Source: Antedon mediterranea (taxonomy: Eukaryota > Animalia > Echinodermata). From it: a stretch of 64,000 bases of DNA. The notes under the pieces were generated by a model, which was given only the letters and a program-made list of their open reading frames with translations, was not told the DNA's origin and made no database searches. The number at the start of each line of letters is the position of its first letter. Position 1 is the stretch's first letter. Positions 1 to 49,500 of this stretch are shown piece after piece. The position numbers and the translations under genes are program-made. The stretch lies in the NCBI RefSeq assembly GCF_964355755.1, contig NC_092680.1, forward strand, positions 4,650,001-4,714,000, written 5' to 3'.

Positions 1-490
1 CATTTCATCTGGGTTTAGTTTTACTATTCAATGTGACTTACCTTGTCAGCTGGGGTTCTATTGTTAGCATCTGATCATTTTAAAAATATGCACAATCTGG
101 TATTTTCCATTGGCAATGTTCATCATTACTTTCATTGCTCGTTTTTCCTTATTCAGTTGCGTATTTTCCACGTAGGCCTATCTCATCTGCTCATATTTAG
201 CTCACATAATTTTCTTCTCCAAAGACCTTTTTAAACCTATATTTTCAGTTTATCACGCATATAAAACACGAAAACAATCACTATTTTGAACCTCTCTTTA
301 GCAGTGTTTTCGCGGGTTGTTATACACGTCACATTATCTAGAGACACTTCTGGTTTATGTACCGCAGTGAGTAGTATGCAATTACCGTGCCAGTTCATGA
401 AGATAAACCTGTCTTTAGTCATTGGGACCAAGTCGAAAAATATTTCGGTCATACTGGATTCGTTCCCTCAAGATGACGTTCATGAATATG

Positions 491-645
491 CATATTTATG
501 ACGTAACGATGAATTACGTAATAAAGCGCGTAAAAATAGACTATTACCAGCTGTTCAAGTACTTTACGGCGTAACGGGAAATGCTCGGTCTTGAGAACCG
601 TCAGCTCTAGCTTGGGTTCGAATCTCAACGGATTTTTTTTAGTTG
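491..645 (+). repeat. Copy of the tRNA-like dispersed repeat at 30595-30745
   Basis: Direct alignment by eye; B box GGTTCGAATC followed by GGA(T)8. Confidence 0.75.
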
Positions 646-2175
646 AAAATAAATATTGTTTTTCTTTTATTTAGAATGAGAGATATTTAGATTCAGGAAA
701 TGTCAGGCCTAGGCCTAAACAATTTCCTTTATATTGGGGTGGGGGATGCGCGCTGCCGGCCTTCTCACCTGCATTATAAGACGATACAACATGGCTACAC
801 ATTAAACTGTTCTATTGGCATCAACTTTATTGTCAATGTATTCCATGAAATAACCAAAATTTCAATTACAAAATTAGTATATAATGCAAATACAATAACG
901 TAATGTGTAAGTACATGGAAAAGGTATTTAAATACGTTTACTATAAATTTAAGCACTCTTAAAGTACGGGTTCAGAAAGCTAATCAATTGTAAAAGGATG
1001 CCATGCAATAATTATGTTACTGACAATCACTACAAAATAATAAATAAATAGGAATAATAATACATCTAGGTTTTACAGCTGCGTCGGATTCGGATTGCGG
1101 CAACGGATAGAGGGCGCTTATACGAACCGACTAAGACTACTGTAATGGTTTGATTTTTTTTTAATCTACTCCAAAGAAAGGGCTTTATTGTAGTATTCCT
1201 CAAATATGCTTCTAATATTAGATAACATGCATTAGTAGGTGACAGCATTTTAATATATTAAACACTTGAGAAGGTATATACATTGAAGATATAGTAGAAA
1301 GTTAAAGCAATTCTAATTCGTACCAATAGGCCAGAAGTTAAGAGAAAATCTATTTGGCTATTTACACTTTCGTTGAGAATAAAAACATCACTATTGTGCC
1401 TATAAAAATAAAGCGTCTATGAATGGTGTGTCAATGACTTTTCTAAACAGTCTCAATTGCATCACTGTTGTGTTTCTATATATTAACTCACTTGGATTAT
1501 TAAACGTAATAAACAATATTTCTATAATTATTTCTATAATATAGTATAAATTAAAATAAACTAAATATTAAAGTATTTCTGTTTCTGTAAAACTACATTT
1601 TGGAATATTCATCTAAATATACTCTATATAACGTAGATTGTTTTAAAGAATCTCTTTTTGAAGTCGGACTAAGAAAAAATGCTTTATATTTACAAAAAAA
1701 AAATCTTGATAAACATAGTTTGTATTATCAGAGAAAGCTTTTTTCTGGTTAAGGAACGGATGTACTCAGTCTGGATGTACTGTGACATCAGGCTCGTCAT
1801 TCAAATATATCGTTTGACAACTCTAACCATAATTATTATATTTTTTTAATTGGTACAAATGTTTTACCCGTAGTTTTAATCAACTCAAAGAAACGCAATG
1901 CAAAATTTGTTAAAAACAATGGATTTTTTTCTCAGAATGTTTTTTTTTCTGAAACTGTACACATCACATTGCATTAATAAGTTTAAAGCGAATCTTATCC
2001 TTAACTATGTCATAATTACTGTATAAAGTTGTACAAATAGAAAGATGTTCGAGCCTAATTTTATATTATAAAATAAATATATTTAACATTCATTTTACAT
2101 ATCGTCGAGTATTATTTATAATGTTTTGTTACGCCCTCTATGTCTATGACATTCCTACTGTCTTTATATCGTGTA

Positions 2176-5100
2176 TTATACATCTTTGCTCATCATTGCT
2201 GCATCTACTTTTCCCCAGGCTCCTACGACAAACGACTCAATTCCACACATATTTGAACCACGTTCGATACGGAAATAACCATCTTCTCCCCAGTTTCTTC
2301 CCCAAGAATTTGCACAGAGCTGAAAAAATAGTACAACATTCATTATGCACCCAGAACATTATTACTAGCTATCTGTAAAAGTATACTGATACACAAATAT
2401 CTTTACAGTTTCAATTTCAATTATATGAAGAACACTGACATTGGAGTTGGTTAATTATTTCTATTGGTTTATTAGTAAGTTAGTAGAACTATGCTGTTGC
2501 TGCGTGCTATGTATTTGCGCACATGTCATCAAATACTCGTGTAGAGTGTATTGTAGATAGTCCCTGTTAATTTTGTCAAGAACCTAAGTTAATTAAATAT
2601 CTTTTTCTGTTTAAAGCAATATGAAATCGCTTAATATATTAATTCATTTACATAACTTACCCAATATGGAACGCCGTTTTCGTCAGTGCCCCACCCAATG
2701 ATTCTCACCGAATGCCAACCACTTTGTTGATACTGTGGAGGTTCTTGGACTCGTGCGTAGCGGTATACTCCTCGTTTGTACATAAAGAAATCCGATTCCA
2801 CTAAGAAAGTTGCTGATTAAAGAAGACATGTAATAAAAACATTAGTTAAAATAAGTAAAGGCTATCAAAAATTCAACTTTAATTGGCTAGTGTTTCTTGC
2901 ATCATCGTTTTACACCTTTCCAACCTCACCAGAATTTTTAACTATCTTGAGACACCGAATTGTATTGGTTGTAATGAATACAGAAAACAAACAAAAGAAC
3001 ATATTAAAAACTCAACTCAAGATTTATAAACGTATACAACAAACGACTAACCTTGTACTGGACCATTTTTAAATATTTCGTGTTTAATTTCATTTTCCTA
3101 CAATAGAATAAATCGTAAATAAAATTGATCATGTAAATAATATTCGTAAAACTCAGTTGTACATGTGAACAGAACATAATAGTCGAAATGCGTTACGATG
3201 TATTATCTGTCACTGTCATTTTTAGTTCATTAAATAACTACTATATCTATAAAAAAAAAAAAAACTTTATATACTATACTTATATTTCTATTTAAAAGAA
3301 AAAAAAAAACTTTAAAACAATAAATATTCCCATGAATTTAAGAAATATTATGAAATTTCAAAGATCACTTACTTCTTGGCCAATTCTATAAGGAGGTGTT
3401 GACTTGTAGGCTTCGCTGTGGACATATTCATTAGGACAAGGTGAGTGTTCCGGTGGTGGCAACATACAGTGTCCCTTCTTCATCGTCATATCCGTGTCCA
3501 TACCACTTTTGTATGGATAGCACTCAGCAGTCACAATTCTAAGTGTAAATCATGTTATATTGTTTAATATAAGGATTAGAAATTACAGAATATTAATTAA
3601 TTATTTATGAATCCTATCAAAAAGCTAAAAGTTGGAGATCAATATAAACTCAATTGTCAGAGCCCGGTTTAGATCACGGGAACATTTCAGTGTTAGAGAG
3701 ACCTGTAAATAAGGAGCATTGTAACTTGCGACTACGACCTAGGACTTATCGAAACATTATGTATATTCTTAGTATCTAAAAATCACCAATACTGTGCCAA
3801 TAAATTGCGAGGAAGCACGTCGCAACTTCCACACATCAATACTACACACATAACCCAAACATTTGTTTTTTACTATTGGACATGAATTTGGAAGTATACG
3901 GTAATAAAACTCACCCTTTCTTTCTTAGAAAATACCATGCACGATCAGTATACCCTCCATCGCATCCTCTCTGACGTCTAGTATTGCATGACAGTAAATG
4001 TTGTGGAGATAAAATAACTTTCATCGTTCCCATAGATTGGATAGCCAGACGGTCAGATGCAACTGCTGTTGTTGAAAAAGCCCATGAACTTCCGCAATTA
4101 CCCTGATCCATAATTTCTTCGATGTAACCGGGCCACTTCTCTCGTGCATCAAATCTGTCTGGTACACTATGTTCCTCCATTTGAATTTTATTCATAGACA
4201 TCACCGTCTCATCAGGTTTCATTGTACCCAGTCTAAAACGGACTCCGCTTTCTAATGTCTTACCCCAAAACACGGTGTAGTTATCTGCAAACCATCTGAA
4301 AAAATAAGTACGAAAACAATAAATTAAAATAGAAAGTAATTTAGAAAGTAAATTTTTTCGATGCCACTGTTCACTTTCAATATCATTTATAAATCACAAG
4401 TTTTGTTTTCTTCTTTTTCAATTTATATTTACCCTTTAGTCAGCATCGCTAATTCTATTCCGACAACGCTGATTGATTTAGAGTTATAAAATATAAAAAG
4501 ATAACTTTCATGTGAAATAAAATAGTTGACCATACCCATTTTCTGTATTGCCATTGACTTTGTCAATTACATTTTCCCGTATAAGACAAGCATTCATTTC
4601 ACATTCAAATGCATATTTTCCAGATCCAGATTGTACTTCTTTACAAGTGCTGCAAATTAAAATATAACACAATATAAAATGATAACCAGCGCCCTCTAAC
4701 GTAAATTTGCTGTTTTTCAAGATTAAATTATACGTCAGTATAACTAAATAAAGTAAACTCTCTGCTAATACATTCCAAATTACACAATATTCACTGTTTA
4801 AAAAAAATTATAAATGAACCATCATTTCACACGATAAGAATATCAATGTACATTGGCAGCTCCGGGTTTGAGAGAAACATGGTCAATTTATTCCATGTTA
4901 CATTGGCGGTGGATTTGAAATCAAGACGATCCGCAAAAAGCTACATGATAGTAAAAACATATTGGCTAAATTTTACCGGTAAAGTATGAGTCACAAAACA
5001 AGGGGGTTTTCAATGGTATATCTTGCTGCTTTTGAGTTTATACCAAGAACTCAGAGAGGCCTAATAGATAAATTTACCAATATGCATATTATTGAAAACC

Positions 5101-6112
5101 AGTAAAGGACAGAAATATTGTGTGTCATTTACACTTCATAATCATCAAAAAGAAATTAATAATAACGGGCAAAATATATAAAAAACACCTGTACTGTCGT
5201 CGTGCACCCTTGGGTCAATCGATTAATACATATTTTGGTTGTTAATAATTCACTTATAGTAATGGAAACTAAATTGACAAAATGTTTGAAGAAAAGTATG
5301 TTTACCATCGGTTACAGTTTTCAGTATATGACAATCCCGCAGAAAATTTAGCACCATCATCACGAAGACAATCAACTAAAAACAATAATTATAACAATAT
5401 GAATCAATTTTTATAATATGTATTTGCTGTGCAGTATAGTTCCCTTACTATTAAAAAAATGTTTCTAAATATTGTTTTCAATATTTAATATACGTCCAAT
5501 CAAATGAAATCATGATTTGTAAGAGTAATAATAGCTGGCAATATTATTTTATCAAGACAACATAAATAAGTATCCTATAGGCCTATAGTTTTAGACTGAA
5601 CACTTTTTGTTTTGTTTTATGTAAGAAACTTTTATTTTTATCTATTTATCGTCGATCGTTATCGTCCTGGTGTGTAGCAGCCTTAACATTGGAGGTTAAT
5701 TGTACAATTCTGGCTCGTTTGCAGAACCTAGTGCATAGTTCGGTATACAGATCCATGTAGTTCATGTTGAATTAACTGTGGCTGTTATTATCTAACAAAC
5801 TGACAAACAAAAAAATAGATTTTTAGTCCTATCATTATGATGTTAAAGCTACTTACAGTCCGTTACGTGATCTGGCGGCAATGTAGGCTCGATATTAAGG
5901 CATTCACTAGAAAAATCCGGGCAACAGTCACCCGATTCAGTCCGGTCACAAAACTCATCACAATAACAATAATGACCGTCCATTGGTGTCAGACAACTAT
6001 CATCTCGACCAAAACAACATCCTCTTACTTCACAGTATTGCGCGTTGGCAATTGAAAAACAAACGGTTGCAATTAGCCAACATGAAAGCACCTTCACTAT
6101 GTTTCCGTCCAT
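2176..6112 (-). CDS. TINAGL1: Tubulointerstitial nephritis antigen-like protein (TINAG/TINAGL1 family; secreted, Cys-rich SMB-like N-terminus plus inactive papain/cathepsin B-like domain), 8 coding exons, ~442 aa
   Basis: Exons in transcription order: 6112-5857, 5375-5306, 4649-4536, 4295-3915, 3538-3373, 3097-3052, 2812-2661, 2319-2176; all GT-AG, phases consistent, 1329 nt. Signal peptide [24 protein letters not shown]; CYCDEFC...DCCPDF; [12 protein letters not shown]; [11 protein letters not shown] (catalytic Cys replaced by Ser); [11 protein letters not shown]; [16 protein letters not shown]. An acceptor at 6120-6121 implies an upstream non-coding exon. Confidence 0.93.
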
Positions 6113-7392
6113 CCTAGTTCTGTAAGAAAACAAATTATTATTCACACACAACTCTTAATACATTGTTAAAGCTCAGGTACAGGCATGGATTTTGAATATA
6201 ACATCTGGTTAAATGTACATAAAACAAATATGTGCAACAAAATCACGACGAAAACACACGAATTTCCCTTAAAATGACCAATTTTTCAACATTTTGCTAT
6301 AAAAGCCTGACCGACTTTTGTCAGTAGTTAGGTAGTTTAACAAATGTCTTACCATATCCGGTGACTCCCTAGAAAGTGCAAAAAAGGTTGGGGGTATAAT
6401 ACAGTGGACAATTGTTGATATAGCTATACCACAACGATATTTTCCCTAATTGTTTCAAAATGCTTCTCTATTACTGTGTAATTTGAACTATCCCCCATTG
6501 ATACGATTTTCAACAAAATAGTGTAGCACAATAATAAAATCCAAGAAATTATGAATCGATAATTATTAGAATGTATGATCAATAGAAATGTTTTGTTCGC
6601 ACGTGGCCTATGATGAAGTATCTCATTGCTCTTAACTAAACTATTTCGAAACTGTTTGATTTGGAATTACGAAATGTGTCGTGGGAATAGGTAATTCTCC
6701 AGTATGTGAATAAATCCCATGATTACCTAACGAAACAAAGTCGAAAACTTAAGTCACGATCATAAAATCGAACATTCCATTGTCAGATTGCCTTGCATTG
6801 ATGATTCCGACGAAACAAGTAAACACCTTTTAAAAAAAAACTAGGCCACGAAATTGGTACAACCCAGAAAAACACAACACGGGTTTTTAAATGGAAACAT
6901 CTTATATACCAGTTGAGTAACATACTATAAGAAGTGGTAACAGAGCCGAAAATCGATAAGTTATTCAACAAAATGTTAAATGTTTTTATAATACATCTTC
7001 ATTCCAACTTAATTTCTATCAGACTGTGTAATGCGATTAACGGGTATTTAGTCCCATTAGCGTCTTTCAATGGCGATAGAATATATCTTATTGTTTCTGT
7101 TTAAGTCCAGCATCAGAATGGCAGCAACGAAGACACGAGATACACTTTCTTATTGTCTGGTTAACTCAATGATACTAATTTGAAATAAAGGCAACATAAT
7201 ACAAAAGAAGATTTAGTTTAATCGTCCGATTTCAGAAAAAGACATTTAGTTTTGGTACTTTTAATGTATATAGTTTTATTCTTTGGTTCCCAGCCATACT
7301 TACGGTATCTAAAAAAGAAAAATGGTGGCCGGAAAAAAGATCTATCTTCTAAAGAAAGCTTGTGATCTACCCCAGCTCATTATAAACACTAA

Positions 7393-7587
7393 AGCGTGGT
7401 TCCCACTAGCGACGCAACACAAGGACGTAACGCAACGCAAGTGAATTGACCAATCACAAGCGATGGCTTATTCGCTTGTGATTGCTACCGCCGGTCTATA
7501 ACTTCGCTTGTCATTAGTTAAAACGCTTGCGTTGCGTTTACGTCCTTGCGTTTACGTCCTTGCGTTACGTTCTAGTGGGACCAAGCT
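7393..7587. mobile_element. PIF/Harbinger-like MITE family A
   Basis: TIR AGC(G/T)TGGTTCCCACTAG, long imperfect palindrome of ACGCAA/TTGCGT repeats; nearly identical to 61393-61576. Confidence 0.8.
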
Positions 7588-9181
7588 TATGAGTTAAAAG
7601 TACCGTAGATGACGGACGCGTAAGAGAAGATTGTGACCATTTCCATTGACATGTGCACGCGCGCATTATTCAGTATAGGCCTACATTTAATAAAGACAAA
7701 ATAAATCACAATTCGGAATAATAATGGATAAAAGCAGGAAAAGTACTAAAAGACCTAAAAGGCCAACGTATTTTCACTCTGGTCCTACTGTAAAAATTCG
7801 AGCATTCTTTAATATAAATGTTACACATACTTATAATACTTTATCACTTCCACACGGTTTCATTGAAATCATTTTAATTAAAACCATCCATTCAACATTT
7901 TCTTTCAATATTACCTCATTTTTCATGTCCAAGTTAACTTTTTTTCTGTTTCTATTTTAAGAAACCAAAGAAGATTATCAATGAGCCTCGTTAAATCTAA
8001 ACCATTCAAAAATACCTTGCACACAAGTGTATCCTAGGCCATCATAAAACTAACATTCAATATTCTACAAATGTTTAGGGGTGACGATGAACAAATACAT
8101 ATACATATATCCGGTCATAAAACTAATAAAACACACATTGATAAGCACCGTAGTACACAACTTTGGTTGGAAAATCCCACTACCGGTACTTAGTAGGCCT
8201 ACTCGAGGATTTCAGCCATTCATGTATCTCTCGACTACGGTACATCATCATTAGTCTCTTCAACACTTACCTAAAAAATGTTTTGTATGAAATGAAGGGT
8301 TTTCCTCGGCTCTTAAAACATTCGTATTGTAGGCCTAAGGTACCTCTCTAGCAGGTGATCAGACGAGCACAATATCGATTAGTATAAGCAAACCGTTTAT
8401 TATTATTAACCCCTTAATTGCCTATCGGCTGAAATATTATCCTAGTCAGATAAGAAGAAAACTGTTGTGAATTAATTTATAAAATCACAAAATCAAGTTT
8501 TCTTTTTATTCCACAGGCGTGCTTCATTAGGTTCACACCATTCCAGTCAAACCGTTTTGAAGTTTGTTTATAACAACCCAGAGGATCAAAAGAATTATCC
8601 TCGCATTGGTGGTGTATTAAAGAAGGAACCAACGTAGCGAGGCTAAATCCATATGATTATCCAAGCTTACACGTTGAATATATTACATCGGCACAAACGG
8701 AATTAACAGGTTGTTAGCAAATGTTCTGTCCGATATGCGTTTCTTTAAATTCAAATTAAGTTGTAATTATCCAAGGGCAGATCCAGGATTTCTGAAAGGA
8801 GCTAATAATAGCCTTATGATGGGTACAAAGGCCCCACCCGCTTTCTCTCTTGTCCATCTTGTACAGGTCAACTGTAGTACGTATTGATGAGGAACATGAT
8901 AATGAGCCTAAATAAACACCTTTCTCTCCATAACTAATGTATAAAGTAGGCCAACTAAACAAAATCATTATACACGTAGTGGTAATATGTTAAAATAAAT
9001 TATATATAAAATTGTATACGTTTGAAGTGGGTGGAAGCACTTACGCTCTGCATCCCGCCAATGATCTTGCTATGCTATATATATGAAAACACTAGGGTTC
9101 TTTCCATTACAATTAAATAGGCCTACATTCTTTTTTCTTTACACATTATGGAAAGTATAGTTTTCAATCAAGATCCAAAAC

Positions 9182-9347
9182 TGAAAGTAACTCGGCCTGA
9201 GATTGAAAGTAACTCGGCCTGTGATTGAAAGTAACTCGGCCTGAGATTGAAAGTAACTCGGCCTGTGATTGAAAGTAACTCGGCCTGAGATTGAAAGTAA
9301 CTCGGCCTGAGATTGAAAGTAACTCGGCCTGAGATTGAAAGTAACTC
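9182..9347. repeat. 22-bp minisatellite, ~7.5 copies
   Basis: Unit TGAAAGTAACTCGGCCTG(A/T)GAT. Confidence 0.95.
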
Positions 9348-9918
9348 AATTTGATATTAAAATCAAGACCGTTTCCGATCGAAATTAAAATACGAATGAT
9401 AGGCCTAATACTGAATAAACAGCTCATATTGAACAAACAAAAGAGAGCGAATTAGTTTATGTATCCAGTGATTCTACATGCTTTGCAAAATCGCATAATT
9501 CAAGCGGACTCAGTCCAAGCGGACTCTTTCCACACATAAATACGGACTATACTGAAGTTACCATGATAGATGCTAATATCAATAAATACATAAATAAATA
9601 AGTAGCTTTAAAATACTACAAAATAAATAAAATTAGTTATAGAATTATTTCATAACCTACCTGTAGAGAAAATAGATGTTTAATATAGTTCTTTGACATA
9701 TCAACCCTACATGTTTTACTGTTTATTGTTTCGAGTCATGGACTTCGAACGACACAGTTATTATACATTAGACGTGCGATATAGCAAACATAGACAGTCT
9801 ACGTCAAATACAATAACTATCAATTTATAACTAGTTAATAAACGTAATGTTATTTTTAGAACTTATAACATTGTCATTTTGACAGGTACAGTACCACAAG
9901 GTCCAATATATAGTGTAA

Positions 9919-10052
9919 AGCTTTGTCTACACAATCAAACTTTATGTGACCAAAAAAATGTGATGTGCCCATATATGGACATGATGATGTCATCACTACC
10001 ATATTTAAGCATATCACATTAACCATATTATTAAAGAAGTGTAGACAGAGGT
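9919..10052. mobile_element. MITE family B (TIR AGCTCTGTCTACACTATCAAACT; internal 21-bp repeat CATATCACTACCATATTTGGG)
   Basis: Matches TIR and internal repeat of the copies at 33.9-58.3 kb. Confidence 0.75.
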
Positions 10053-13000
10053 GAAAGCGAATAGAATAAGATTTGCGACATATACCACACATGTGTTTCC
10101 AAAAAGGAAATTTACGTTTTGGTTGCACTCCACTATTTTGTGTTCATTATTAAAAAGATCTAAGATTTAGAATGTATTTCTCCGCGGATTATAAAAAAAA
10201 AGAAAGAAAGCCGTAAATTAGATAGGCCCTACACTTGATTCCCACATTGATTACAATACAAAACAAGAAACGATAAAGTTGAAGTTTAAGATTAGTTTCA
10301 GCGAGAATAACCATTTGAAGTGGAAAACGGTTGAACTTACAAAACGCGGCCAGATCGTTTGAAGTTGTACGAGTTCTTAATTGTTCCTTATTATACAAAT
10401 TAGTTTGATTTGAGAATCGATTGAAACTATTTAGATTGTTTGTATTGAAAATTAGTACGCTTATTTTGGCTCTTAGCATACTAATTGATTTTACAGTTGA
10501 ATTGTTCCCGTACGGCCACCATTTTGTATCTATATCAAAATATTTGTGACGTTATACATGGGGAGCCTCACATATTATTATCTGATGGATAACTTGCTAC
10601 TTACAAAATTACTGTTTGTCTAACATACACTGATCTTCTTAAAATACATTTTTAATGTTTTTTATGCGCAGATGAAAAAGTCAGAAACAAAAATACATTG
10701 TTTATATGGATATCATTTCTTATTGTTATACTAAAACTATACATAGCCACAAACATTAAATAATTTTAGTAGGATACCTTGTTATTGAAAAATACGTTAT
10801 ATCATTTTAAAAATCCAGTAGAACTCATTAATTTAATTTCGCGTTACAAACAAGTCAGATTACACTTCGTCTAATCGTTTTACCGCGTTATTACATTATT
10901 ACAAGTATCTCTATTAAAATTGTGTTTTAACAAAAAAATTCAAGTGGACAGCATGATGTCAATAATTTTAAAAAAAACATATATAGGCCTACGTTATGGT
11001 ACATGTGTGATGAATTTAAATGAGAGGAATATATTAAATATGTGCAATATAAAACAATATTCATCCGTTCTCCATAAAGCTAAAAAGGGTTAATTTCGCC
11101 TGTTTTGATTTATTACGATACAAATTAGTACCGTACTATCTTGTCTATGTTGTCGTTGTGTCTAATTGTTAAGCTAAAGTTAAATAATATAACTTGGATA
11201 ACGGAAGAACTATTTATTTTACGACGTTATATGAATACCTGTACACTAGCAGAAAATGACCTTAGACCCCCATATTCATTTACGATAACAGCAACGCTAC
11301 CTCTGCTATTTGTCACTATTTTTGCAACTTCTAAAACGAAATCCTGTATAATATTACAAAAGTACAGTTAGCAACAATGTCATGCCAACACCTAAGAAGA
11401 ATTATCGTTAGAATTATATAGAAATAATAACAAAAGGCGCTTACCAAAAAGAACTGGAGTGTATAAAATCCAACAGCAGTCTGTTAGACAGACAGGGCTG
11501 AACACTACAATGCGCTCACGCACGGGTCATGGAGAGACAACCTGCTGTGACAGTATGCAAATGATTATGCAAATTACCTGAAAGTTTATATTCGCAGCGG
11601 TAGGGAATACCAAGGATATGATATCATAAAGAAAATGTATGATTCAATTGGTATATATTGGGGCAAATCAGGGTACATACATAAACTAGGCCTAAGGGTA
11701 TGTAAGTTGTGGTGGAGTTAGTGAAGGAGTTTCCGAAACTGTATTTATTATTATGTGTGTTGGTTTTTAGTAAGTTTCTGTTCTTATTTTATCAGTTCTT
11801 TTTATGGAAATCGATCTTTATTGTTTACCGTACTTCTATAATAATAAAATGGCGAAAGATATAATTGCTAATTTAAATAATCACTACAGTTTATTTCTAG
11901 TCAAACGTTGCCTATTAAAATGGAAACAAATAAAATCCCACAAACAGTTGTAAATTGATAAATGATATGTGGTATCCAACATTATTCTTATTTGGGTAAA
12001 AAAATAAAATTACAAAAAAAGAAGTAGCACATTGGCGATTATAAAATAACTAAATTATTTTATTTAATATTAGACAATGAAATTGAATACGACAATTGTA
12101 ACACTATAAAAGTTGAGAAACGCCTCACCAACTGAAATAACAATTACATACTTATAAGATCCTTATCAGGTTTTGAATATCAAACTGTTTTCGTGCAACT
12201 ACATGAAAACGTCAAAAATGTTATTACTAAACATTAATGTTTGCGGCACAGTTAACATACATGTTACAACATTTACAAGATAATTGGTTATAACAGCACT
12301 TTGATTAGATAATTTGATCTTCGAACGAAATCGGTGGAATTCTCGCTCGAAAATGAAATGACAAATTTGATCGTCTGTGGCCTCACAATACGGGGTGGCG
12401 GGCTATATGGTGACCTCAATAACCGACCTTCCTAAAGGCACGGTTTCCCTCCCATCGATTATCAAAGCAAGAACATACGTTCATATCGCATATTACAGCT
12501 ACTATGTATTTTCCAAATGTTATCAACGATTATTTTTTTTTAAATAATAATATCAAGGTATTTTAATAAAAGACGACTTAGTTTTTATTTCCTTCGTGGG
12601 TTAAACATTACCGTACCTTGTCTGTTGATTTTTTTATATATATATTTTATCTGTGTATTCTAATAAAAATGAATAACAATTATTATTAATAATTTTCAAT
12701 ACTTAATGGATTTTTTATATTATTTAACATCAAACAAACCTCAAATCCAATACGTTTACACACAAACGATTGTTTTCTATTTTTTTTTAATACAAGGCCT
12801 AATTAATAATGTTATCGAGAACGAAACAATCCTATTAATAAACCATAGTTATTATAACCACTCCTGTGAACAAAAACCAATCTAAGACCACTGTGCGTCA
12901 TCTAATGTCAGCTAAGGTTCAGTTTAAATTACATGAGAACAAACACCAAAACATTACATGATACCCAATATGCAAATTTACCAATTAATCACATACAAAA

Positions 13001-30568: not shown

Positions 30569-30594
30569 ATTTTGGTTTTAAAAAGGTTAATATG

Positions 30595-33939: not shown

Positions 33940-34094
33940 AGCTCTGTCTTCACTATCAAACTAGTTTGACAAAAAAAGTATGATGTGCCCAAATATGGTA
34001 GTGATGCCTACATATGGTAGTGATATGACATCATGTCCCTATATGGGCACATCACATTTTTTGTCGCATAAAGTTTGATAGTGTGGACAAAGCT
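33940..34094. mobile_element. MITE family B copy
   Basis: Both TIRs and internal 21-mer present. Confidence 0.8.
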
Positions 34095-34695: not shown

Positions 34696-34772
34696 GGGAT
34701 TATACTAGGTTGAACATGGGATTATACTAGGTTGAACATGGGATTATTCTAGGTTGAACATGGGATTATACT
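34696..34772. repeat. 22-bp tandem repeat, ~3.5 copies
   Basis: Unit GGGATTATACTAGGTTGAACAT. Confidence 0.9.
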
Positions 34773-38700: not shown

Positions 38701-40479
38701 TAAATAAATCAACAGTATAACACTTCTTTAATCGCCTATATAAATATTTCTCACTATTGTAGTGGGGAAGCCAGGAAATTATGGGTGGATGTTAATATCA
38801 TTAGGTATACCTGCCAACCTTGACATAACTATTTCTATGCAATCTTTATCTTGGTTTTTGTAGGTGCTCAAGCATGCGTCTTAGCCTTCTCCACCGTAGA
38901 TCGTGACTCATTTGAAGCAATAGAATCTTGGAAACGAAAAGTAGAAGATGAAGTATCATCTATCCCGATGGTTCTTATACAAAATAAAATTGATTTGGTT
39001 GATGATGCAGTTTTAGAACCGTAAGTTGCTGAAACATAGTTTAAACCTAACATTTCAATTCAATTCATCTTTTGTTTCAGACAAACTGTTCATATAGATA
39101 TACAGTATACAATAAAAAATCAAAGAAATACAAAGCATTATGTACAGTGATGACAACCATAACAAAATCATAGTAGTGCCTCTATCCATTTGATATTGAT
39201 ATTGATATCATTCGTTTCTTTATTTCAATATTTCATTTTTTATATAGTTTAGAGAGATTATAGTAATTCAGTTAAATATGCAGAGATATCATTTCCCTGT
39301 GTAGCTACTGTACCTACAGAAGAAATTGCGCAAGTAGGACATGACTAAATGATGTTTATATTGTTTGAAGGTTTGCATGGCGAAAATCAATATGTTGACA
39401 TAAATTAAACGTTATGTAGTTCTGAAACTAAGAAACTCAAAGAAAAAAGTTCTTTTCAGGATTACTGTACAGATACATGTTTACTGAAAACTTTATACAA
39501 CATATGAATTATTTATTACAAAAAATGATCTAATTATCACATAAATGTTATTTATGTTTGATTGATAATTATTTTTTTATTTTGTTTCAGAGAAGAAGCT
39601 GAAGCATTAGCAAAGCGTTTAAAATTAAGATTTTATCGAACGTCTGTAAAAGAAAATCTAAACATAGAGGACGTGTTTCGATATTTAGCCGATAAATATA
39701 TCCAAAAGTTACAATCAACCGAAACGGAAGACAATGAAACAACCAATGCTAAAATTGGTAAGTATAGTATGTGACAAAAAAATGTGATGTGCCCATTATA
39801 TGGACATGATTATGTCATATCACTACCATATTTGGGCATATCACTACTATATTTGGGCATATCACTACTATATTTGGGCATATCACTACTATATTTGGGC
39901 ACATCACACTTTTTTTGTCAAACTATAGTTTGATAGTATAGACAGAGCTTTAGAGAAACTATGTCATGGGTAATATACTCCACCTCTCTATTTTAGGGAA
40001 GCATATGAACACTCCCTTTAGGTCACATTTAGGAACCTACAGTATTCTAAAGTCTGTCCCACAGAAATTTCTATGAAATGTAGCATCCCTGTGGCATCCA
40101 TTTTAAAGGAATTTTAGTCATGGGACTAAACAAGAAATATATGTATTCATTGTGTTACCTAACCCTTTTCAGACATTTCAGACAGTGTTTTATTTTACTA
40201 TTATTATAAATAATGCATATAACATAATGGTGTCAAAATACTATAAAATGAGGAAATTTATTTTAGGACTTCTACTAAAACAGCACTCTACAAATAGAAT
40301 ATATAGAAGTGCTAAAATAATTGTTTTATTTTACAGGTATTTTTAATATATCAACACCCACATCTACCACGACAAATTCAGGTGAAAAGAATGTAGATGG
40401 CGTTATACAACTGAAACCAAACAAGCAAAGAACGAAGGGAAAGAAACATCCATTGAAGGCCTTTTGTACTATCCTCTAA
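35731..40479 (+). CDS. RAB23: Ras-related small GTPase Rab23, 5 coding exons, ~235 aa
   Basis: Exons 35731-35885, 37255-37340, 38864-39020, 39591-39757, 40337-40479; GT-AG, 708 nt. MKEEDIEIAIKVIVVGNGAVGKSSMIQRYCKGIFTADYKKTIGVDFLEK, LWDTAGQEEFDAITKSYYRGAQA, VLIQNKIDL, FYRTSVKE, C-terminal CaaX CTIL. Confidence 0.96.
35910..36200 (-). mobile_element. tRNA-derived SINE (degraded)
   Basis: Homologous to 56915-57207: CTCTCTCCAACCAGGTGTATAAAATGGGTACCCGG core, tRNA-like head at the right end, (ATT)n tail at the left. Confidence 0.7.
36774..36900. mobile_element. MITE family B copy with an inverted copy of flanking DNA inside
   Basis: Both TIRs present; 36795-36846 is the reverse complement of 36724-36775. 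Confidence 0.75.
37630..37826 (+). mobile_element. Penelope-like pLTR remnant bounded by 27-bp inverted repeats
   Basis: 37630-37656 TGACTATAGCGAGGCATTTAATAAAAA is the reverse complement (1 mismatch) of 37800-37826; between them are ATTGG, TATATAAG (37711-37718), the hammerhead motif and ATTAAA. Confidence 0.6.
37738..37776 (+). ncRNA. Minimal type I hammerhead ribozyme motif (Penelope-like) in a Rab23 intron
   Basis: CTGATGA(37742-37748)-T-GAGAA tagt TTCTC (5-bp stem II)-GAAA-CATG-TC: full catalytic core, palindromic ACATGT stem III, GUC cleavage triplet ending 37773; stem I short (TGT/ACA with one extra T). Confidence 0.7.
37838..38190. repeat. ~160-bp tandem duplication (2.2 copies)
   Basis: TGTACCTTTAAATATTGCTT recurs at about 37839, 38002 and 38159; the bodies align. 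Confidence 0.9.
39768..39949. mobile_element. MITE family B copy lacking the left TIR, abutting a Rab23 splice donor
   Basis: Three 21-mers and the right TIR; starts about 10 nt after the GTAAGT donor at 39758. Confidence 0.75.
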
Positions 40480-40844
40480 AATAATGGAATCTTCCATCTT
40501 ATATGTTCGCATGTGTTTTCTTCCGGAATATTCCAATATACCAGGTTTTCTGGAGAATTATGACTTTTTAGGCTGATGTATAATGTTTAGCCAGGATAAA
40601 GTCAAATCATCACATTTCCCAGGAGTATAAATTGGCCCATTTTGTATGGATCAATAAGCCACCTTGAATTACTCCTAAGAACAGATTGACACTCCAGTGT
40701 ATAATGTGAGCATGCAATTGTTACTTATGAAAGTACCGGTATATATACTCTCCAAGCATACTATCTTGTTGAGCTTTGATATTTAATATAATAATGTCAT
40801 CACATCATTTATCCACCAGATTGTCAGTGCTGTATCATCACATT

Positions 40845-41085
40845 ATAACAAGCAAATTCTGTAAAGCATCTCATGTGGTGCCTGTATTTTTAGGGGTTAC
40901 TGTGGGTAGGTTATATGCATGATATAGGCATCACATGTGAAACACATGAGTTTCTAGAAATGTTTATCACAAGCAAATTCCTTAATAAAGCATCTCATGT
41001 AGTGCCTGTATTTTTAAGGGTTTCTGTAGGTAGGGTATATGCATGATACAGGCATCACATGTGGCTCACACATGAGTTGCTAGAA
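40845..41085. repeat. ~120-bp tandem duplication with internal hairpin, downstream of the Rab23 stop
   Basis: ACAAGCAAATTC...CTCATGT(G/A)GTGCCTGTAT...ATA(T/C)AGGCATCACATGTG...CACATGAGTT twice. Confidence 0.85.
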
Positions 41086-41754
41086 TTTTACTGTGGTAGT
41101 GGTAAATTCAGTACAGTACCGATTATCGCATTGATGATGACATAATTTTAATGTTGAAATATTTAAATGTATTTCATTGCTTGGAGTATTAAATATAATT
41201 CCATACTTGACTTTTGTATCTTTATAATGATCATATTCTGGGACTGTATAGAACTCTCCAAAGAGAATACTTATAATACAGATATGAGGCACTTATTATT
41301 ATACAGTAATCTGCACTATAATATTTTAATACATAGTATAGTATATATTATTATTGTTTTAACATAATATTAATAACTATTGGCTGCGATTTTTCTGATG
41401 ACTAATTATCTTGTATGTATAAATAATAAAGGTACACATATTGGTATTGGAAGAAAATAGCTCTCTCTTAACTAATGTTTTCTATAATGTGTGAATGTTT
41501 TCATTCAGACGGTGAAAAAGTTGATTTTTGTAATGTAAACAATATCATAATTTAATAGTAAATTGTTATGAGTATTAATTATAAAGTCGCAAATATCTTT
41601 AGGAATATTTTTATAACCATGAATTTATATAAGATTTGATCCAGTATTCTAAATGTTTAGATTTACCAATGGTATAAGAATGTTACATGGCTGAAGTGAC
41701 TATTTTATTCATAGCTACCTGAAGAAATCACACTAACTTAAGTTGTTTAACTTA

Positions 41755-41838
41755 AGCTCTGTCTACACTATCAAAATGTATGTGACAAAAAAATGTGACA
41801 CGATGATGATTGTATATATCACCACCATATTTGTCAAA
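41755..41838. mobile_element. MITE family B partial copy
   Basis: AGCTCTGTCTACACTATCAAA...ATGTGACAAAAAAATGTGA...CACCATATTTG. Confidence 0.65.
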
Positions 41839-44209
41839 CAATTATGTTACACAGTCATGTGTGTGAAGAGTATGGTGAATGATTAGACAATTTTTACTCA
41901 ATTTAACCACTTTCATTCAATTCATATACCCTCTCCTTTTCTAAGAACAAACGGAATATTGGAGCTTTGCAAAGATATAAATAGTATCTTGATGTTCATT
42001 TACAGTAACATTTGAACATCATTTATCGAAAGACATTCTGACTATTCTGGTACCAAATCTATTTTCCGTATGTCCATCTTTCTATTTATTTATTATTGTT
42101 CTAAGTAAAAATATGTAATGTCGTTTTGAATGTTTTTAAATCAAAATGTTTATGCTATTTTATCTAAATTAATCCTTGAAAGCTAAACCACCTTGTGCAT
42201 AAAAGAAAGCCATCCAAAATTTGTGCTAAAATTATAATCTAAAATTTCAAGAGCCTTAATATTCAATAGCCTAATATTCGAGAACCTTAATATTCTAGAG
42301 CCTTAATATTCAAGACTAGAGGTACTCTATAAAAACTAGATTTGAACTTGTCACTTTGACGAGTTATTAATTATAATTACAGCCAGCCTGCCTACCAATA
42401 ATGTACTTTTTGAAATTTGATTTGTCAAAGTTCAAATGTGAACGGAACAGTATAAAAATATTAAATGACTATTTCACATAGTACTGTATCTCTTGGCATG
42501 CTTGCAGTTATACAGTTTAAATAAAATTTAAGGGGTGGGATTATATACTTGGATTGCATTAAAATGGTTTAGTATCTGAAATCTAGCTTAAATTAGGGGT
42601 GGGATTATATTCAAGCATGGGATACATAATATACTACAGCACATTGAGCGCATGCTTACTATTATATTATATGAGCTATATAAGAATGAAAGTTACAGGT
42701 AAATTTTGGGAAATTGGTGATAAAATGTCACTGTAATTTTAAAAGAAATGTGGATAAAATAAAATATATTGTGCTTAATACAGTAATTGGTTTGGTAATA
42801 ATTTTAATTTGTTTGTGATTTTGGCTTGTACGTTAACGCAACAATAATTTATTTTTATACATTTACCCTAATTGAAAGAATTATTGTTATTTATTTAATA
42901 CACTTCTACTATATACTTGATATTAATACCTTGATACTTGCAGCACTACATTCATTTTTTTAGATTAAATGTATAAATTATGAAATATTGTACCATATTT
43001 ACCTTTTTATTTTGTAATACTTGTTAGAGAATTGGTAAAAGCAAATAAAAAAATTTTATCTTATTCATATTCTGCAATACAGTGTCATGGATACATATAT
43101 ATCACATGTGTTGCCTTTATTATGCTACTGATGGTAATACAGGCATCACATGTGAAAGACATTTGGTCTGTATTACAGAATGTGCCTGTTAAACACTAAA
43201 CAAATAAAAGATACAGTACAGGGAAGGCATGCTTTTCAAAATATATTATAGTTGTAGTATTAAACGTTTTTAATTAATTTAAAGCAGTATTTTTCCGTAT
43301 AATGAAAACTATCTCGGATTATATTTAATTTTCCTGATGAAATGTGACATTGAACTATACAGTAATTAATTTTCGACAATAAATAATTATATTACGTCGT
43401 ATGATTATCTTCGTAGCTTTGTGTAAGGTAATTGATTTACAATGTGGCAATGTCATGATTTTGATTAAACCATAATTTAATATTAGATGCAGACTTATTC
43501 AAGGTGAAAATGTTGTCATCAATCAATAGGCTTATTAATGTACAGATAATACAACTTGCCTTATTACAGTTTTAATATTTAGACTATAGTGTTGTTATAG
43601 CCAATCATGTATTTTATATGTAATGTGTGCGTAAGTATGAATATTGATGACGTTGGGGGCGCTTTTTGGTTATATAAACACGACTGCTGCTTATGTGACG
43701 TTATTCTACAGTATGTATTATGATAACGAAATAAAAACATTTTTTACAAATTCGGTATAATCATGATCTTTCTTTATCGTGTCCATTGGTCGATGACAGA
43801 ACGTTTAAATTGTCTAAATTTGTAAATATAGGTATGACATGCCATGTGTGCAAAAGTGTTGGGATTTTGTGTACAAATATATTAAAGCTGAATTACTTTC
43901 TAGAAACTAGGTATTCTGTCCATATCCCATAAAACATGTGGCAGTTACAAACAAATAGGGGAAAAAAATTTAACTGAAAACAAAATATTAGTTATTTTAT
44001 AATTTAATAAAATGCATATTTATTTTTCAATCGAGGATGTACAAATCAAGGAGTGGGAAGGAGATATATAGTATAAATTCTACACTTACTCAATATTTGC
44101 ATCTTTACAACAATAAAATTTAAGTAAAACTACATCTTTATGTTAAATATAACCATCAAATTCAAATTACTTATGTCAAGAATGTACACTGTACTAACAA
44201 CATTGGTAA

Positions 44210-44433
44210 AGCTCTGTCTACACTATCAAACTTTATGTGACAAAAAAAATGTGATGTGCCCATATGGACATGATGTCATATCACTACCATATTTAGGCAT
44301 ATCACTACCATATTTAAGCATATCACTACCATATTTAAGCATATCACTACCATATTTAAGCATATCACTACCATATTATGGCACATGATACTTTTTTTTC
44401 AAACTACTGTAGTTTAATAGTGTAAACAGAGTT
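44210..44433. mobile_element. MITE family B copy
   Basis: Both TIRs, about five 21-mers; the right TIR carries TACTGTA at 44405-44411 where other copies have TA. Confidence 0.8.
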
Positions 44434-45141
44434 TAAATATCTTTAATATCAAAGAAACAGTGTCTATCAGCTATTAAACAAACGTATCAAAACAACAAAA
44501 TAATTAGGTACAAACAATGTACAGTTAACAATATAATGTACAGTGTATTTAAAATCAGCTGATTTCTGTTTACTTACTTATTTTCTAATCTAGTGATGCA
44601 TACTGTAATTTATTTTGAAATTTCAAAATTATTTTTTTAGGGTAAAAGTAATAGTTTTTTTTCATTGAAAAATACTAGTTATAACATTGCAAACTTGAAT
44701 ACAGATAAAAATACACTAAAGTTGTCATTGCAAGAAATATATTATAATGTGTCTCTTGACTGAAAACACTTGCATCTGATGTTCTATTTTAACATGAACG
44801 AGCTAAGAATGTAACACACAAGTATATTATTGCCATTTCATTCACAGGAGAACGCGATTTTAGTAACACCATTAATTAATCATAATAATTTATGATTCTT
44901 GATTAAAATAATTGATAAAAAACATACTGGACAATTTGGAAAAGGAACCCCTCCCCATGACCAACATCCAGGTGTCAAATTCAAGTTTGAATCAACTGGA
45001 AACAATTAAAACCAGTAAAGTAAACTAGTTAATAACCAAATCACAGTTAAACCAGTTAATTCCTACTAGTTTTACTGTTAACCTTGATTTTTTAACTGGA
45101 ATTTTCTTACGGGCCTCCCTCAATCCTGAATACGGGCCTTA

Positions 45142-45967
45142 TTAGGAAAATTCTTTGCACAATTCATCAACAGATTTTTCTGAATGAACTAACGCAGACC
45201 ATAACGCCTGTAACCGCTTCTTGACCTCTTTTTGATCCTCAGCCGCACAGTCCAACAAAATCGCTTGAAAGTGGTAATCTAATGTACCATCACCATCCGT
45301 CGTACATGTATTAAGGTACCGCGTTATTTTTTCACGTGTTCCCGGTGTATCCGACTGTATATCTGCCTTTAGTTTCTTCAGTATATCTTTGATTTTCAAT
45401 ATTGCCTTTTCTTGGTGAGTACTTCTCACGGTTATCACACTCAGTTCGACAGTGATGCACCGCTTGCACAAACGGTCTATGTACAATTCTAGTTCGTCTT
45501 TTTTCTCTGCAAAACAAAAATAAAATAAGTATTATAGTTAGTGTAGATAGTGCTAGGACATTTTTACTATTTTGTTATACAGTTATGTATGTACCTGTAC
45601 TGAGTCTGTACCTTTATTGTTAGAGGAATCATCATTAATTGTCATAATCATAATTTAATAGGGGCCTACTGTATTACTATTAATACTTTTTATTTTTAAA
45701 TTAGAATAATAACAATCTAATACGTATTTACTTTTACGGCCCTTGCTTACCCTCTGTTAAATCACTTATTGCCTGGCTTTCTGATACTTTATTTATTTTT
45801 TCTAAAATTTCCTGTTTATCCTCTTGGAGTTTTTTGGCTGTGTCCCTAAAGGATTCAACTTGTTTTTCCAGTTCATCCAATGTAATTAGCAAGTAATCAA
45901 AAATAGGATCGTCGCAAATTGCCAACATTTTTTCATCGTTTGGTTTTGATGAGTTCTTATAAGCCAT
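45142..45967 (-). CDS. BAG2: BAG family molecular chaperone regulator 2, 2 coding exons, ~193 aa
   Basis: Exons 45967-45751 and 45506-45142 (GTAAGC donor, TTTGCAG acceptor, phase 1; 582 nt). LLITLDELEKQVESFRDTAKKLQEDK coiled coil; RCITVELSVITVRS; YLNTC...DYHFQAILLDCAAEDQKEVKKRL matches the BAG2 domain. Confidence 0.92.
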
Positions 45968-46560
45968 TTTCCCCACTTGACCCTTTTGTAATGCTTGGAT
46001 AGAAAAACAGATAAAAAATATTAAAAAGTGCTTATAAACATGAATTTTAGTTGGTTCTTATTATTTTAAAACATCAACCTAGGCAAGGCCTACCTGCCAA
46101 AAATTCCCAAATATCAAAAAGACGACCAAGACGTAAATAATGATTCCGCCCTCTAACTATATACAAATGTCTCGATCACATTATAAATGAAAAATTAAGT
46201 AATATATCTGATTTAATTAATAAAAAGTACCTTTCTTTTATAAAAATAGATATAATTTCATATATTTTTTATTTAATTATTACTTTTTCAGTATATTTGT
46301 TTTGTATGAAGTAACAACATATCATTATAATTTAACGCAATATTTTCCGATAAAGAAGGAAGATATTCAAACGATTACTAACTGTGTCTATTTCCACGTG
46401 GTTAACGTAATATTATACAGATAGATTAAATTTAATCCGTTCAAATAGCTAGGTACACAATTTGTGCAGACTAAACGTTAAACGCTAGATCGCCGTGGCC
46501 GCCCGTGTGAAAGTTTTGGAGTTTTCACTTTTCTATACTATTACTACAAATACTTAAAAT
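45968..46560. promoter_or_regulatory. Bidirectional promoter region between BAG2 and USP14
   Basis: Head-to-head ATGs 594 bp apart; CpG-containing; CCACGTGG E-box at about 46394-46401; ATGATTCCGC (ARE-like) at 46140-46149. Confidence 0.7.
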
Positions 46561-49500
46561 ATGCCTATCTTCAAAGGTTTGTTTGTTCATAATTAAAAAG
46601 TCATGCATTACGTATGCCTGGGGAGAAGTATTAGTTAGGCCAAGGCCTATAGGCTAGAGACTTTTATAGTTTAAACTTTAGTAGCCGGCCTGTGACCTCG
46701 GTCCTCGGACGGAGCTACACTCACCGCCACTCTTCTCTGCACGTCACGTCACGTCTGTGCATGAGTTTGGCTGGCCTAGGCCTAGACCCTTTTATTAATT
46801 TAAGCGCTATTGCTGTTTCGCTAGGCCTACTACTACATTAGGCTAGGCCCTAGGTTAGATAAAGGCCTAGCCTAAAAACTGTTTCATACATTTATTTCAG
46901 ATTTGAAATTTTAACACAAAAAAAGATCTCTCACTTCACACAAATAATTATTATAATAAATAGCCCTAGGCCTAAGTACTGTAGTAATAGTAGTGTTATG
47001 CGCGATTTGAACGATTTGCGCAATTTGAAATTGCGCAAAAAAAATCCTTGCGCAATTTGAATTGAAACATGTGTTTCAAATTGAGCAAGCAACGTATTAA
47101 ATTGCGCAAGTAATCTGCAAATTGCGCAAGGTTTTTCGACAGATTGTGAAATCATGTACACCCATATTTTTATAGTAATTTCTAAGAATGATTCAAAATT
47201 AAAGATAAATATCGCATTTCCTTATTTTAGTAGTGCAAATATTGTTATAAGTTAGCATACCGTCGAAGAACCGACGAAGCAAAACGAAGCGGTGGTGTTC
47301 CACCAGGCGGGCACGGCGCGGGCGGCCGGCTATACTACTCTAGCCTAGCTAGGGTCTGGACTACTGATACTGACTAGGTTACATGGCCTAGCTTAAACTA
47401 ATATTAAAAACTTAAAAATTGAGTATTAAACATTATCTTCATTGAAATGGTCTTATTTATATAATAAAATACTAAATTTTAAACTCCTCTGCCTAGGCCT
47501 AGCCTACCCATGTATGGGAAAATTTACAGTTCGTTTTCAAAATGCGCAAAGGTGTCATATTGCGCAAGAACTATCTTGCGCCATTTACAAATTGTGCAGC
47601 GCAATTTAAAATTGCGGAAAGATTTTCTTGCGCAATTTGAAATTGCGCAAGTTGATTGCGCAATTTGAATTTGCGCCAAAAAATCCTTGCGCAATTTGAA
47701 ATTGCGCAAGAATTCTTTGCGCAATTTCAAATTGCGCAAGGATTTTTTTGCGCAATTTCAAATTGCGCAAATCGTTCAAATCGCGCATAACAGTAGCCTA
47801 TGTCTACTACTAGACTAGGAGGTAGGCCTAGGCCTAAAACTGATCCGTAATTCAAGTTTGTTTTTAAACCACCAGAGTTTCAGACATAAATAAGGGTAAG
47901 GCCTAAAAAAAGCCTGGAGAGGCTAACAATTTTTTTTTAAATCTAGTAAACGTGAAATGGGGACGAGAGAAATTTGAGAAGGTAGAATGTAACACAGATG
48001 AGCCGCCGGAACTCTTTAAAGCACAGCTGTTTGCACTATCAGGTGTGCAGCCTGACAGGCAAAAAGTGATGTTGAAGGGCGCTGTACTGAAGGAAGAGAA
48101 CTGGGGAACGTTTAAATTGAAAGATGTAGGTTTACTACTTAAACAATTATGCATTTGTCTACAAGAATTGTTTTTATTTGTTTTTTGATAAAAAGGTGCA
48201 GTACAGTATTCAGAGCCGAATCCATGATTGTTAACGGCGAGTGCATAATAGGCCTACAGTATAAAAATGAATAGTCTGTCAAAATGAGGTAGCTGTGCCC
48301 TAGGTCTCACTCTCCTGGATCCAGCACAGCATTACCTTGTCAGTAACACAAGGTTACTTTATTTCCTCTCAAGTTTTTTTTTTTTTTTTATTCTTTTACT
48401 GGCCAATATATTCATACCAAGTAAACACACTTTGAATTTGAAAATTAAATTACATATTTATATAACCATTTTCATTAAGTTTATGGAAGATAAACTGGTA
48501 TGTTTTAATTATATTTTAGGGAACTACATTTCTGATGATGGGAACTGCCGATGAGCTACCAAAAGAGCCACTTCAGAAGACCATGTTCGTAGAAGATATG
48601 AGCGACCAACAGTTAGCAACTGCAGTATGTGTATACAATAAGACTTAATAATAAATACTAAAGTTGGCTATTTATCTAACTGTAGTTTAATATATCTATC
48701 AAGTACAGTGTGTAAATTTCCTGGTACTCAAACATGGTATAATGCTCTGCCTACACTATCAAACTTTATGTGAGAAAAATGTGTGCTGTGCCCAAATATG
48801 GTAGTAATATGACATCATGTGCATATATGGGCACATCAAATATTTTTGCCAGTTTGACAAAGCTTTATATTATACAACTCAGTCATATCCAAATATTTGA
48901 GAATCAATTTCTTTTTCTTATTTTCGTTTAGCTCAACGTTCCAGCTGGTCTAGAGAACCTTGGCAACACTTGCTACCTGAACTCAACTCTCCAATGTTTT
49001 CGAAGTGTGCCTGAACTACGAGATTCTCTCAAAAAGTATGCATCGCTAAAAACTTTTTTTTATTTATTCAAACAAAGCTTTTTTAAGGCCTAAAATTATG
49101 TAGTCGACTATCCCAATAAAGAACTCTCTGAAAACCAGATACTCTCCCAATATCACACTTTTCTCAAGGTTCAAAGGTCCCAAATTCTTTTTTTACAATT
49201 AAAAACGTATTTCAAATACCAAACCTTCCGGAAAACCAGACATATTAGGCCAGCCCAAAGGTGTCTGGTATTGGTAGAGTTTGAACTTTTAACTTGATTA
49301 TGTTAAACAGTTATGACTTTTATGATTCTATTATAAATTTTGTTACAGGTTTTCTGGTAGGATAAACCCATCAGTAGTTGATATTCAACCAGCAGAATCC
49401 ATAACGTCCAGTATTCGGGATCTCTTCTTGCAAATGGACAGCACCTCACAAGATGTGCAGCCAATCATGTTACTACGGTTAATGCATCTGGCATTCCCAG

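Follow-up and report, generated by a model that had tools for sequence, protein, structure and literature searches.

TA-flanked words in a feather-star genome window as probable repair scars of cut-and-paste transposons that target TA

Introduction

Why should the same short words, bounded on both sides by TA, recur in one stretch of animal DNA far more often than expected? The question is raised by 64,000 nucleotides of the feather star Antedon mediterranea (assembly GCF_964355755.1, contig NC_092680.1, positions 4,650,001 to 4,714,000; this whole stretch is called the window, and coordinates are counted from its first base), in which a preliminary description attributed the word TAGGCCTA and several sister words to the excision of Tc1/mariner transposons and derived all of them from one rule of 3-base overhangs. 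The words fall into a GG class (TAGGCCTA, TAGGCTA/TAGCCTA and longer words), a CAG class (TACAGTA/TACTGTA), a CC class (TACCGTA/TACGGTA and TACCGGTA), and a proposed CAT class (TACATGTA). The excess of the words, their insertion at TA with doubling of the TA, and the sorting of the classes by CpG level were all observed. As for their origin, the words are probably repair scars of TA-targeting transposons of the cut-and-paste type (Tc1/mariner-pogo), which would be of at least two kinds and probably of three; the donors of the GG class would be cut two bases in.

According to this explanation, an element would insert at TA and duplicate it, its excision would leave the bases of its tips as 3' overhangs, and the gap would be filled by end-joining. 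In the GG class, each tip would start with GG and the cut would fall two bases in; simple fill-in would give TA-GG-CC-TA as the commonest product, and an overlap or loss of one base would give TAGGCTA/TAGCCTA. Extra copying on the GG overhang would produce the longer words TAGGCCCTA and TAGGCCCCTA, for which a deeper cut in a tip carrying a G run is an equally open source. The CAG class would stem from a Sleeping Beauty-type 3-base cut and the CC class from Passer-type CCG ends. Unmethylated DNA would be the preferred target of the GG and CC donors, whereas the CAG donor would favour gene bodies that are methylated.

Results

Excess of the words over background

The excess is real. Under Markov models of order 1, 2 and 3, TAGGCCTA is expected 0.5, 1.0 and 3.1 times in the window, against 36 sites found (P <= 6e-26), and it has the highest observed/expected ratio among the TA-N4-TA words. 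The claimed hyper-abundance was borne out, with the word present at all 20 of the given coordinates that were checked; no site lies beyond 48256 in the rest of the window. The sister words are each in excess over Markov expectation and occur in both complementary forms, as had been proposed: TAGGCTA/TAGCCTA at 22 sites against 7.2 expected (GGC 9, GCC 13), TACAGTA/TACTGTA at 70 against 18.6 (CAG 42, CTG 28), and TACCGTA/TACGGTA at 15 against 6.1 (CCG 9, CGG 6). The reported set of TACCGGTA sites proved to be enriched (5 against 0.5), two of the five positions having been stated one base off. The CAT-class word had also been counted as part of the vocabulary, but TACATGTA shows no excess in the window (4 against 3.7, P 0.5). 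Cores of two to four bases with both complements present have the form of excision footprints, and the rare cores of five or six bases go beyond the usual range.

A second set of sequences was obtained by a scan for paired TAGGCCTA in metagenomes, which gave 122 stretches, of which 121 loci (373 kb, from other organisms, some bacterial) were used. In these loci, the CAT-class TACATGTA is in excess (28 against 8.1 expected). The number of stored metagenome stretches that contain paired TAGGCCTA is estimated at about 62,000.

It is hardly credible that the excess stems from the copying of repeats that happen to carry the word. In the metagenome loci, 6 of 29 TAGGGCCTA sites do share flanks and belong to one repeat family, but no shared flanking family is visible by eye among the 36 TAGGCCTA sites of the window, almost none of which falls inside a self-match of the window.

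Insertion at TA

Where two copies can be cleanly compared, the words are insertions that duplicate a TA. The stretch from 10120 to 18300 was compared with contigs from four sequencing runs (X1 to X4) of one sample. At 15990, the X1 and X2 contigs are without exactly six bases that the X4 contig shares with the window, and the short-allele contig shows 0 other differences across 429 letters. The short allele reads TACAGTA; therefore, the GG word occupies the second TA of a CAG word. The preliminary description had called for polymorphic six-base insertions at TA, and this one site carries both alleles. The other indels over this stretch, among the matches listed, are unrelated to scar words. 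A comparison with contigs over 1-20000 was swamped by repeats, with a hint of a six-base gap in the best 12 of 69 indel rows.

Paralogous copies within the window provide further cases of insertion with duplication of the TA. The decayed word CAGGCCTA at 14955 is a clean gain of six bases relative to a paralogous TA near 14725, with both flanks aligned. The pairing of 14724 with 15303 that had been put forward aligns on the right flank only and gives way to this one. The TACAGTA at 37894 is a gain of five bases over the plain TA of a tandem duplicate (38002-38188), and the TACTGTA at 44405, in one copy of a short repeat family, is a gain of five over the plain TA of sister copies near 53037 and at 39.8 kb. 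The neighbouring TACTGTA at 37884 has no clean alignment and was rejected as a clean insertion. In the metagenome loci, 137 indels separate similar loci; 7 of these duplicate a TA, and 3 of the 7 are of the GG class.

Three details belong to these comparisons. GG-class words on metagenome contigs (L076:3516, L028:6293, and L031:1088) are clean insertions relative to a similar stretch. Of the repeat copies 35986-36160 and 57000-57158, the first carries extra letters that include TACAGTA, in an unclean alignment. Finally, in X1 and again in X2, a single contig links 12062 to 13550 with 32 other letters between them; one side of this join has 21 letters only, and it may be a structural allele or a repeat artefact.

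Length of the cut

The vocabulary had been offered as a match to a 3-base cut. It does not discriminate, because 2-base tips GG, CC, and CA can yield every word listed. TA-flanked cores made of a G run and a C run, G(n)C(m), were counted against expectation (observed/expected) in the window and, as distinct sites, in the 121 loci. In the window, G2C2 (36/0.7), G1C2 (22/6.1), G2C3 (5/0.2), and G2C4 (1/0.04) exceed expectation, G1C1 (12/12.9) and G1C3 (1/1.1) are at background, and G3C3 has 0 sites. The loci gave 408/3.8 for G2C2, 148/36 for G1C2, 29/1.6 for G2C3, 11/0.4 for G2C4, 2/0.1 for G2C5, and 0/0.2 for G3C3, and two-base duplications inside the word number 1 for AG and 0 for GC. One side of the GG-class core is therefore mostly fixed at two letters, and we infer from this matrix that a two-base GG overhang fits the class better than GGC. 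The CAG class, with abundant CAG/CTG and no accompanying CATG, agrees with a 3-base cut of the Sleeping Beauty type. CCG ends like those of Passer suit the CC class, whose counts are too low to fix its cut length.

The alternative of the preliminary description derives all classes from 3-base overhangs (GGC, CCG, CAG, and CAT) that anneal fully or through a self-complementary terminal pair. It accounts for the abundance of CAG/CTG without TACATGTA and for the predominance of GGCC over GGC and GCC; CCG- and CAG-ended elements exist, and G2C3 could also be built from GGC tips. However, the core GGGGCC (TAGGGGCCTA) needs letters beyond those of GGC tips, yet it occurs at 1 site in the window and 11 in the loci, so the cores are not all assembled from GGC and GCC, a point that is weak in the window alone. 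Moreover, GGCGCC (TAGGCGCCTA), the plain fill-in product of GGC tips, has 0 sites in both sets, and the CAT class is unenriched in the window. In the consulted part of the pogo table of PMC7386202, all 5 GGC hits fall either in one decayed row of Tigger or in a fungal element that duplicates TAA, and the best 20 of 23 TAGGC hits are mammalian Tigger end cells; no GGC-tipped TA element is among them. For the GG class, the GGC rule is doubtful, and a single 3-base rule for all classes is unlikely.

The GG class might also arise without any transposon if open DNA were cut at TA, with staggered ends, by a host or domesticated nuclease, and if G residues were then added by a repair polymerase ahead of joining. 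The composition of the core from G and C runs only, the clustering of the words near gene starts, and the searches of window and loci, in which no donor was found, would agree with such a process. Free addition, however, should also yield G1C1, G1C3, and G3C3, which are all at background in the window, and the ends of known elements correspond to the CAG and CCG words that occur alongside. We consider this origin quite unlikely.

Chains of words

The preliminary description reported frequent chains and explained them by the doubling of TA targets at each scar. Among 154 words of all classes, a set that includes chance words, 11 share a TA with the next word against 4.6 expected from local density (P 0.008), which upholds the excess of shared TAs; the literal double word TAGGCCTAGGCCTA occurs at a single site, 47823, so that for this word the reported frequency of chains is too high. 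GG-GG links number 6 against 1.5 expected. Doubled targets alone do not suffice for a 2.4-fold excess over all classes, or for the 4-fold excess of GG-GG links.

Sorting by CpG level

DNA was called CpG-poor where the CpG observed/expected ratio, with the words masked, was below 0.7; such DNA holds 36% of the TA sites. It contains 6 of the 64 GG-class words (2/36 TAGGCCTA, 3/22 GGC/GCC, and 1/6 longer words) and 48 of the 70 CAG/CTG words, and 18 of the 20 CC-class words are in CpG-rich DNA (CpG-poor: 1/15 CCG/CGG and 1/5 CCGG). By circular shifts, the P value is 0.020 for GG-class words and 0.011 for CAG/CTG words. If clustering is ignored, a Fisher test on the class sorting gives 9e-13, which overstates the sorting because there are only two CpG-poor blocks, both of them gene bodies. 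Low CpG marks gene-body methylation in invertebrates. The window contains a peptidase C1-like gene (exons 2179-6112) and Rab23-like, BAG2-like, and USP14-like genes. An exon frame of the peptidase C1-like gene is 100% identical, over 88% of the query, to a protein recorded under A. mediterranea. The GG-class words are concentrated in CpG-rich DNA, with clusters at two likely gene starts; their densest cluster and chains (46839, 47494, 47823, and 48249) lie between the BAG2-like and USP14-like genes.

Decay does not explain the scarcity of GG words in CpG-poor DNA, because these words contain no CpG. The CAG class was also considered as deaminated CC-class words and this was rejected: the twin product, TACCATA/TATGGTA, is found 2 times against 5.3 expected, where TACAGTA/TACTGTA is found 46 times against 9.0. 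In CpG-rich DNA, CAG/CTG words are likewise at about twice their expectation (21 against 9.2).

The clustering of GG-class words in CpG-rich DNA at likely gene starts is what would be seen if they were protein-binding sites or products of substitution, selected near promoters. Against this, the words arise as whole insertions, and, apart from a slight bias toward G/C at -1, no motif marks their flanks. Variants of TAGGCCTA that differ by one substitution exceed expectation at each of the four mirrored positions (by 4-12 per 72 strand counts), which is the picture that decaying sequence of mixed age should give. Both origins, binding sites and substitution, are highly improbable.

Donor elements and transposase

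In supplement 3 of PMC7386202, as far as consulted, 97 cells begin with TACCG, and the 10 among the matches listed are Passer elements with TA duplication; Passer elements begin with CCGTA. CAG-ended TA-targeting elements are also recorded there. Of 99 hits that begin with GGG, one among the matches listed is an amoebal Fot-like element with TA duplication. Of the termini that the preliminary description wanted sought, CCG ends exist, and no GGC-ended TA-duplicating element was found among the GGC and TAGGC hits listed from this source or in the window. The CAG and CCG cores match the ends of elements from other species, and no convincing donor was seen in the 64 kb themselves.

Several candidates were examined. 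The repeat at 37626-37829 (about 200 bp, with inverted ends of 20+ bp) was rejected as a CAG-ended TA element (37636-37820), as its inverted repeat runs past the TA and TAA stands on both sides; the palindrome 36725-36845, which sits inside a copy of a repeat, has no end obviously in common with it. Another family, with copies at 18326, 24644, and 60717, begins with TAGGTTCTAG; it is not GG-tipped, as its similarity continues outward. The stretch 20588-20787 has CAG/CCG ends with 15 of 20 bases matching and is a weak candidate only. Among the TA-flanked inverted repeats of the 121 loci, none is convincing as a GG-tipped element; the candidates in L056 and L016 were, on inspection, rejected or kept as undecided.

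A number of results weigh against scars of GG-tipped donors cut two bases in. No GG-ended, TA-flanked inverted-repeat element was found in the window, and examination of its 150 longest frames, out of 173, and of 134 of 170 frames of the metagenome loci revealed no transposase domain, no search using a pogo transposase having been made. At 15990, the X3 contig has 5 gaps and 1 other letter, which is unexplained; the indel is unpolarised and comes from one sample, which may be the assembly's own. Among the matches listed (12 of 21 indel rows), 1 of the 9 TAGGCCTA sites in the compared stretch has an indel. The evidence from G2C4 in the window is one site (P 0.055), and the strong counts of longer words come from other organisms, chosen for TAGGCCTA pairs. 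Slippage may supply part of G2C3 (TAAGGCCTA, 3/0.45 in the window and 12/2.0 in the loci), and the loci have somewhat more G1C1 (114/86) and G1C3 (19/7.8) cores than expected. Only two blocks underlie the sorting by CpG, TACCGGTA taken by itself shows no sorting (P 0.46), and decay should in any case remove CC-class words from CpG-poor DNA.

Other repeats and coordinates of features

An 801-bp element at 46993-47793, between the diverging BAG2-like and USP14-like genes, has 39 of 40 terminal bases matching, repeats that contain TTGCGCAA, TA on both sides, and ends CTG and GTG; a TAGCCTA lies on its right TA. A family of short inverted repeats with AGCTCTGTCTACAC ends, possibly Harbinger-like, has an internal 21-bp tandem unit and very high run depth, and 9 of its 11 copies lie in CpG-poor DNA. 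In a second such family, with AGC(G/T)TGGTT ends and very high depth, all three copies (7387-7592, 28137-28333, and 61371-61624) lie outside the CpG-poor blocks. Tandem arrays have units of 44 bp (53418-54044), 59 bp (53189-53369), and 22 bp (9182-9347).

Table 1. Positions of scar-like words, chains, CpG blocks, and one repeat family in the window
Feature	Position	Strand	Remark
TAGGCCTA, first 18 sites	173, 710, 5578, 7676, 8194, 8330, 9118, 9400, 10984, 11687, 13748, 15304, 15388, 15412, 15765, 15820, 15990, 18714
TAGGCCTA, remaining 18 sites	19167, 22335, 25186, 26333, 30866, 31030, 31746, 32028, 32843, 33274, 33536, 46777, 46822, 46967, 47494, 47823, 47829, 48249
GG-class sister words overall	10223..60830
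TAGGCTA/TAGCCTA	13052 to 60824		22 sites
TAGGCCCTA/TAGGGCCTA	10223, 22525, 30872, 30977, 46844		5 sites
TAGGGGCCTA	45659		1 site
TACAGTA/TACTGTA	within 1138..63988		70 sites
CC-class words	3897..63852		15 TACCGTA/TACGGTA and 5 TACCGGTA
TACCGGTA	4974, 8181, 26452, 40734, 63845
Decayed word CAGGCCTA	14955..14962	+
TACAGTA	37894..37900	+
TACTGTA	44405..44411	+
Chain TA-CAG-TA-GGCC-TA	15985..15997		bases 15990-15995 polymorphic between runs
Three-link chain TA-GGCC-TA-GGCCC-TA-GCC-TA	30866..30885
CpG-poor block	33301..45999		spans Rab23-like gene (+) and 3' part of BAG2-like gene (-); probably methylated
CpG-rich stretch	46000..48300		between diverging BAG2-like and USP14-like genes
CpG-poor block	48301..59499		spans body of USP14-like gene (+)
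AGCTCTGTCTACAC-ended family copies	9905-10035, 33930-34105, 36765-36910, 39760-39960, 41745-41840, 44200-44440
AGCTCTGTCTACAC-ended family copies, continued	48730-48880, 52760-53070, 54630-54835, 55540-55700, 58150-58265

Discussion

Significance

A full-text search returned no paper with TAGGCCTA as a whole word, and literature searches returned no recognisable genome-wide footprint study; the coverage of both was incomplete, with most subscription papers and Repbase outside it. Footprints are so far known from assays and mutant alleles. It is possible, and we put it forward tentatively, that an undescribed and widespread family of GG-tipped TA transposons with a 2-base cut, together with CAG- and CCG-ended families, wrote about 1% of the window as scars. 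Words in excess account for about 645 bases of the 64 kb, and polymorphism persists at one site or more; excision would therefore contribute notably to small insertions, most densely beside gene starts. If the tentative reading is true, the scar vocabulary is a fossil map that k-mer counts would reveal in any animal genome, and in which the class of a word records the cut length of the enzyme, the repair route of the germ line, and the methylation preference. As end-joined Tc1 scars in C. elegans are mostly somatic, the germ line repairing by homology (PMC13148408), scars inherited as densely as here would imply that end-joining is common in the germ line. Should the sorting extend to the whole genome, millions of natural events would allow family-specific chromatin targeting and end-joining in the germ line to be studied in animals without genetic tools.

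Comparison with known systems

By their form, namely insertion at a TA site that leaves a TA at either end, the words likely belong with the footprints of Tc1/mariner-pogo elements; the comparisons below draw on portions of the cited sources. The consulted portions of PMC12632400, PMC2874221, PMC7325037 and PMC7913693 supplied neither footprint letters nor tip motifs of use here. TACAGTA and TACTGTA are the canonical 3-base footprints of Sleeping Beauty, and both 2-base overhangs of the Tc1/Tc3 type and 3-base overhangs of the Sleeping Beauty type exist (10.1101/659086). The CAG-class words are identical to these footprints, with the TA doubled and both complements present, but here they are natural, inherited, dense (about 50 excess sites per 64 kb), and concentrated in CpG-poor gene bodies, and the donor was not seen. 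The footprints of Tc1/Tc3, mariner, and IS630 (10.1101/659086; PMC13148408) likewise consist of TA, two tip bases, their complement, and TA, joined end to end; their tips are CA, whereas the putative tips here are GG, and the feather-star scars are inherited, in contrast to the mainly somatic Tc1 scars of C. elegans.

Among the pogo-related systems, Fot and Fot-like elements (PMC7386202) have ends that begin with GGG or GGT, one of them with TA duplication. Those among the rows listed, however, come from fungi, algae, oomycetes, and one amoeba, with no echinoderm, and mostly duplicate TAA or TAAA. The ends of ISL2EU (PMC4482050) usually begin with GG, but ISL2EU and PIF/Harbinger elements duplicate AT or TWA, whereas the unit doubled at 15990 is a TA preceded by G; TWA/AT duplication was looked for and not found, and a scar of either kind was rejected. 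Passer (PMC7386202, PMC9976928) shares CCG ends, TA duplication, footprints of 0-4 bp, and a preference for gene starts and active chromatin with the CC class. It differs in that no copy was confirmed in the window, where 20588-20787 is only a weak candidate. In human cells, Passer favours gene starts, and genic Sleeping Beauty insertions tend toward gene bodies (PMC9976928), a division that the sorting of the word classes by CpG level parallels.

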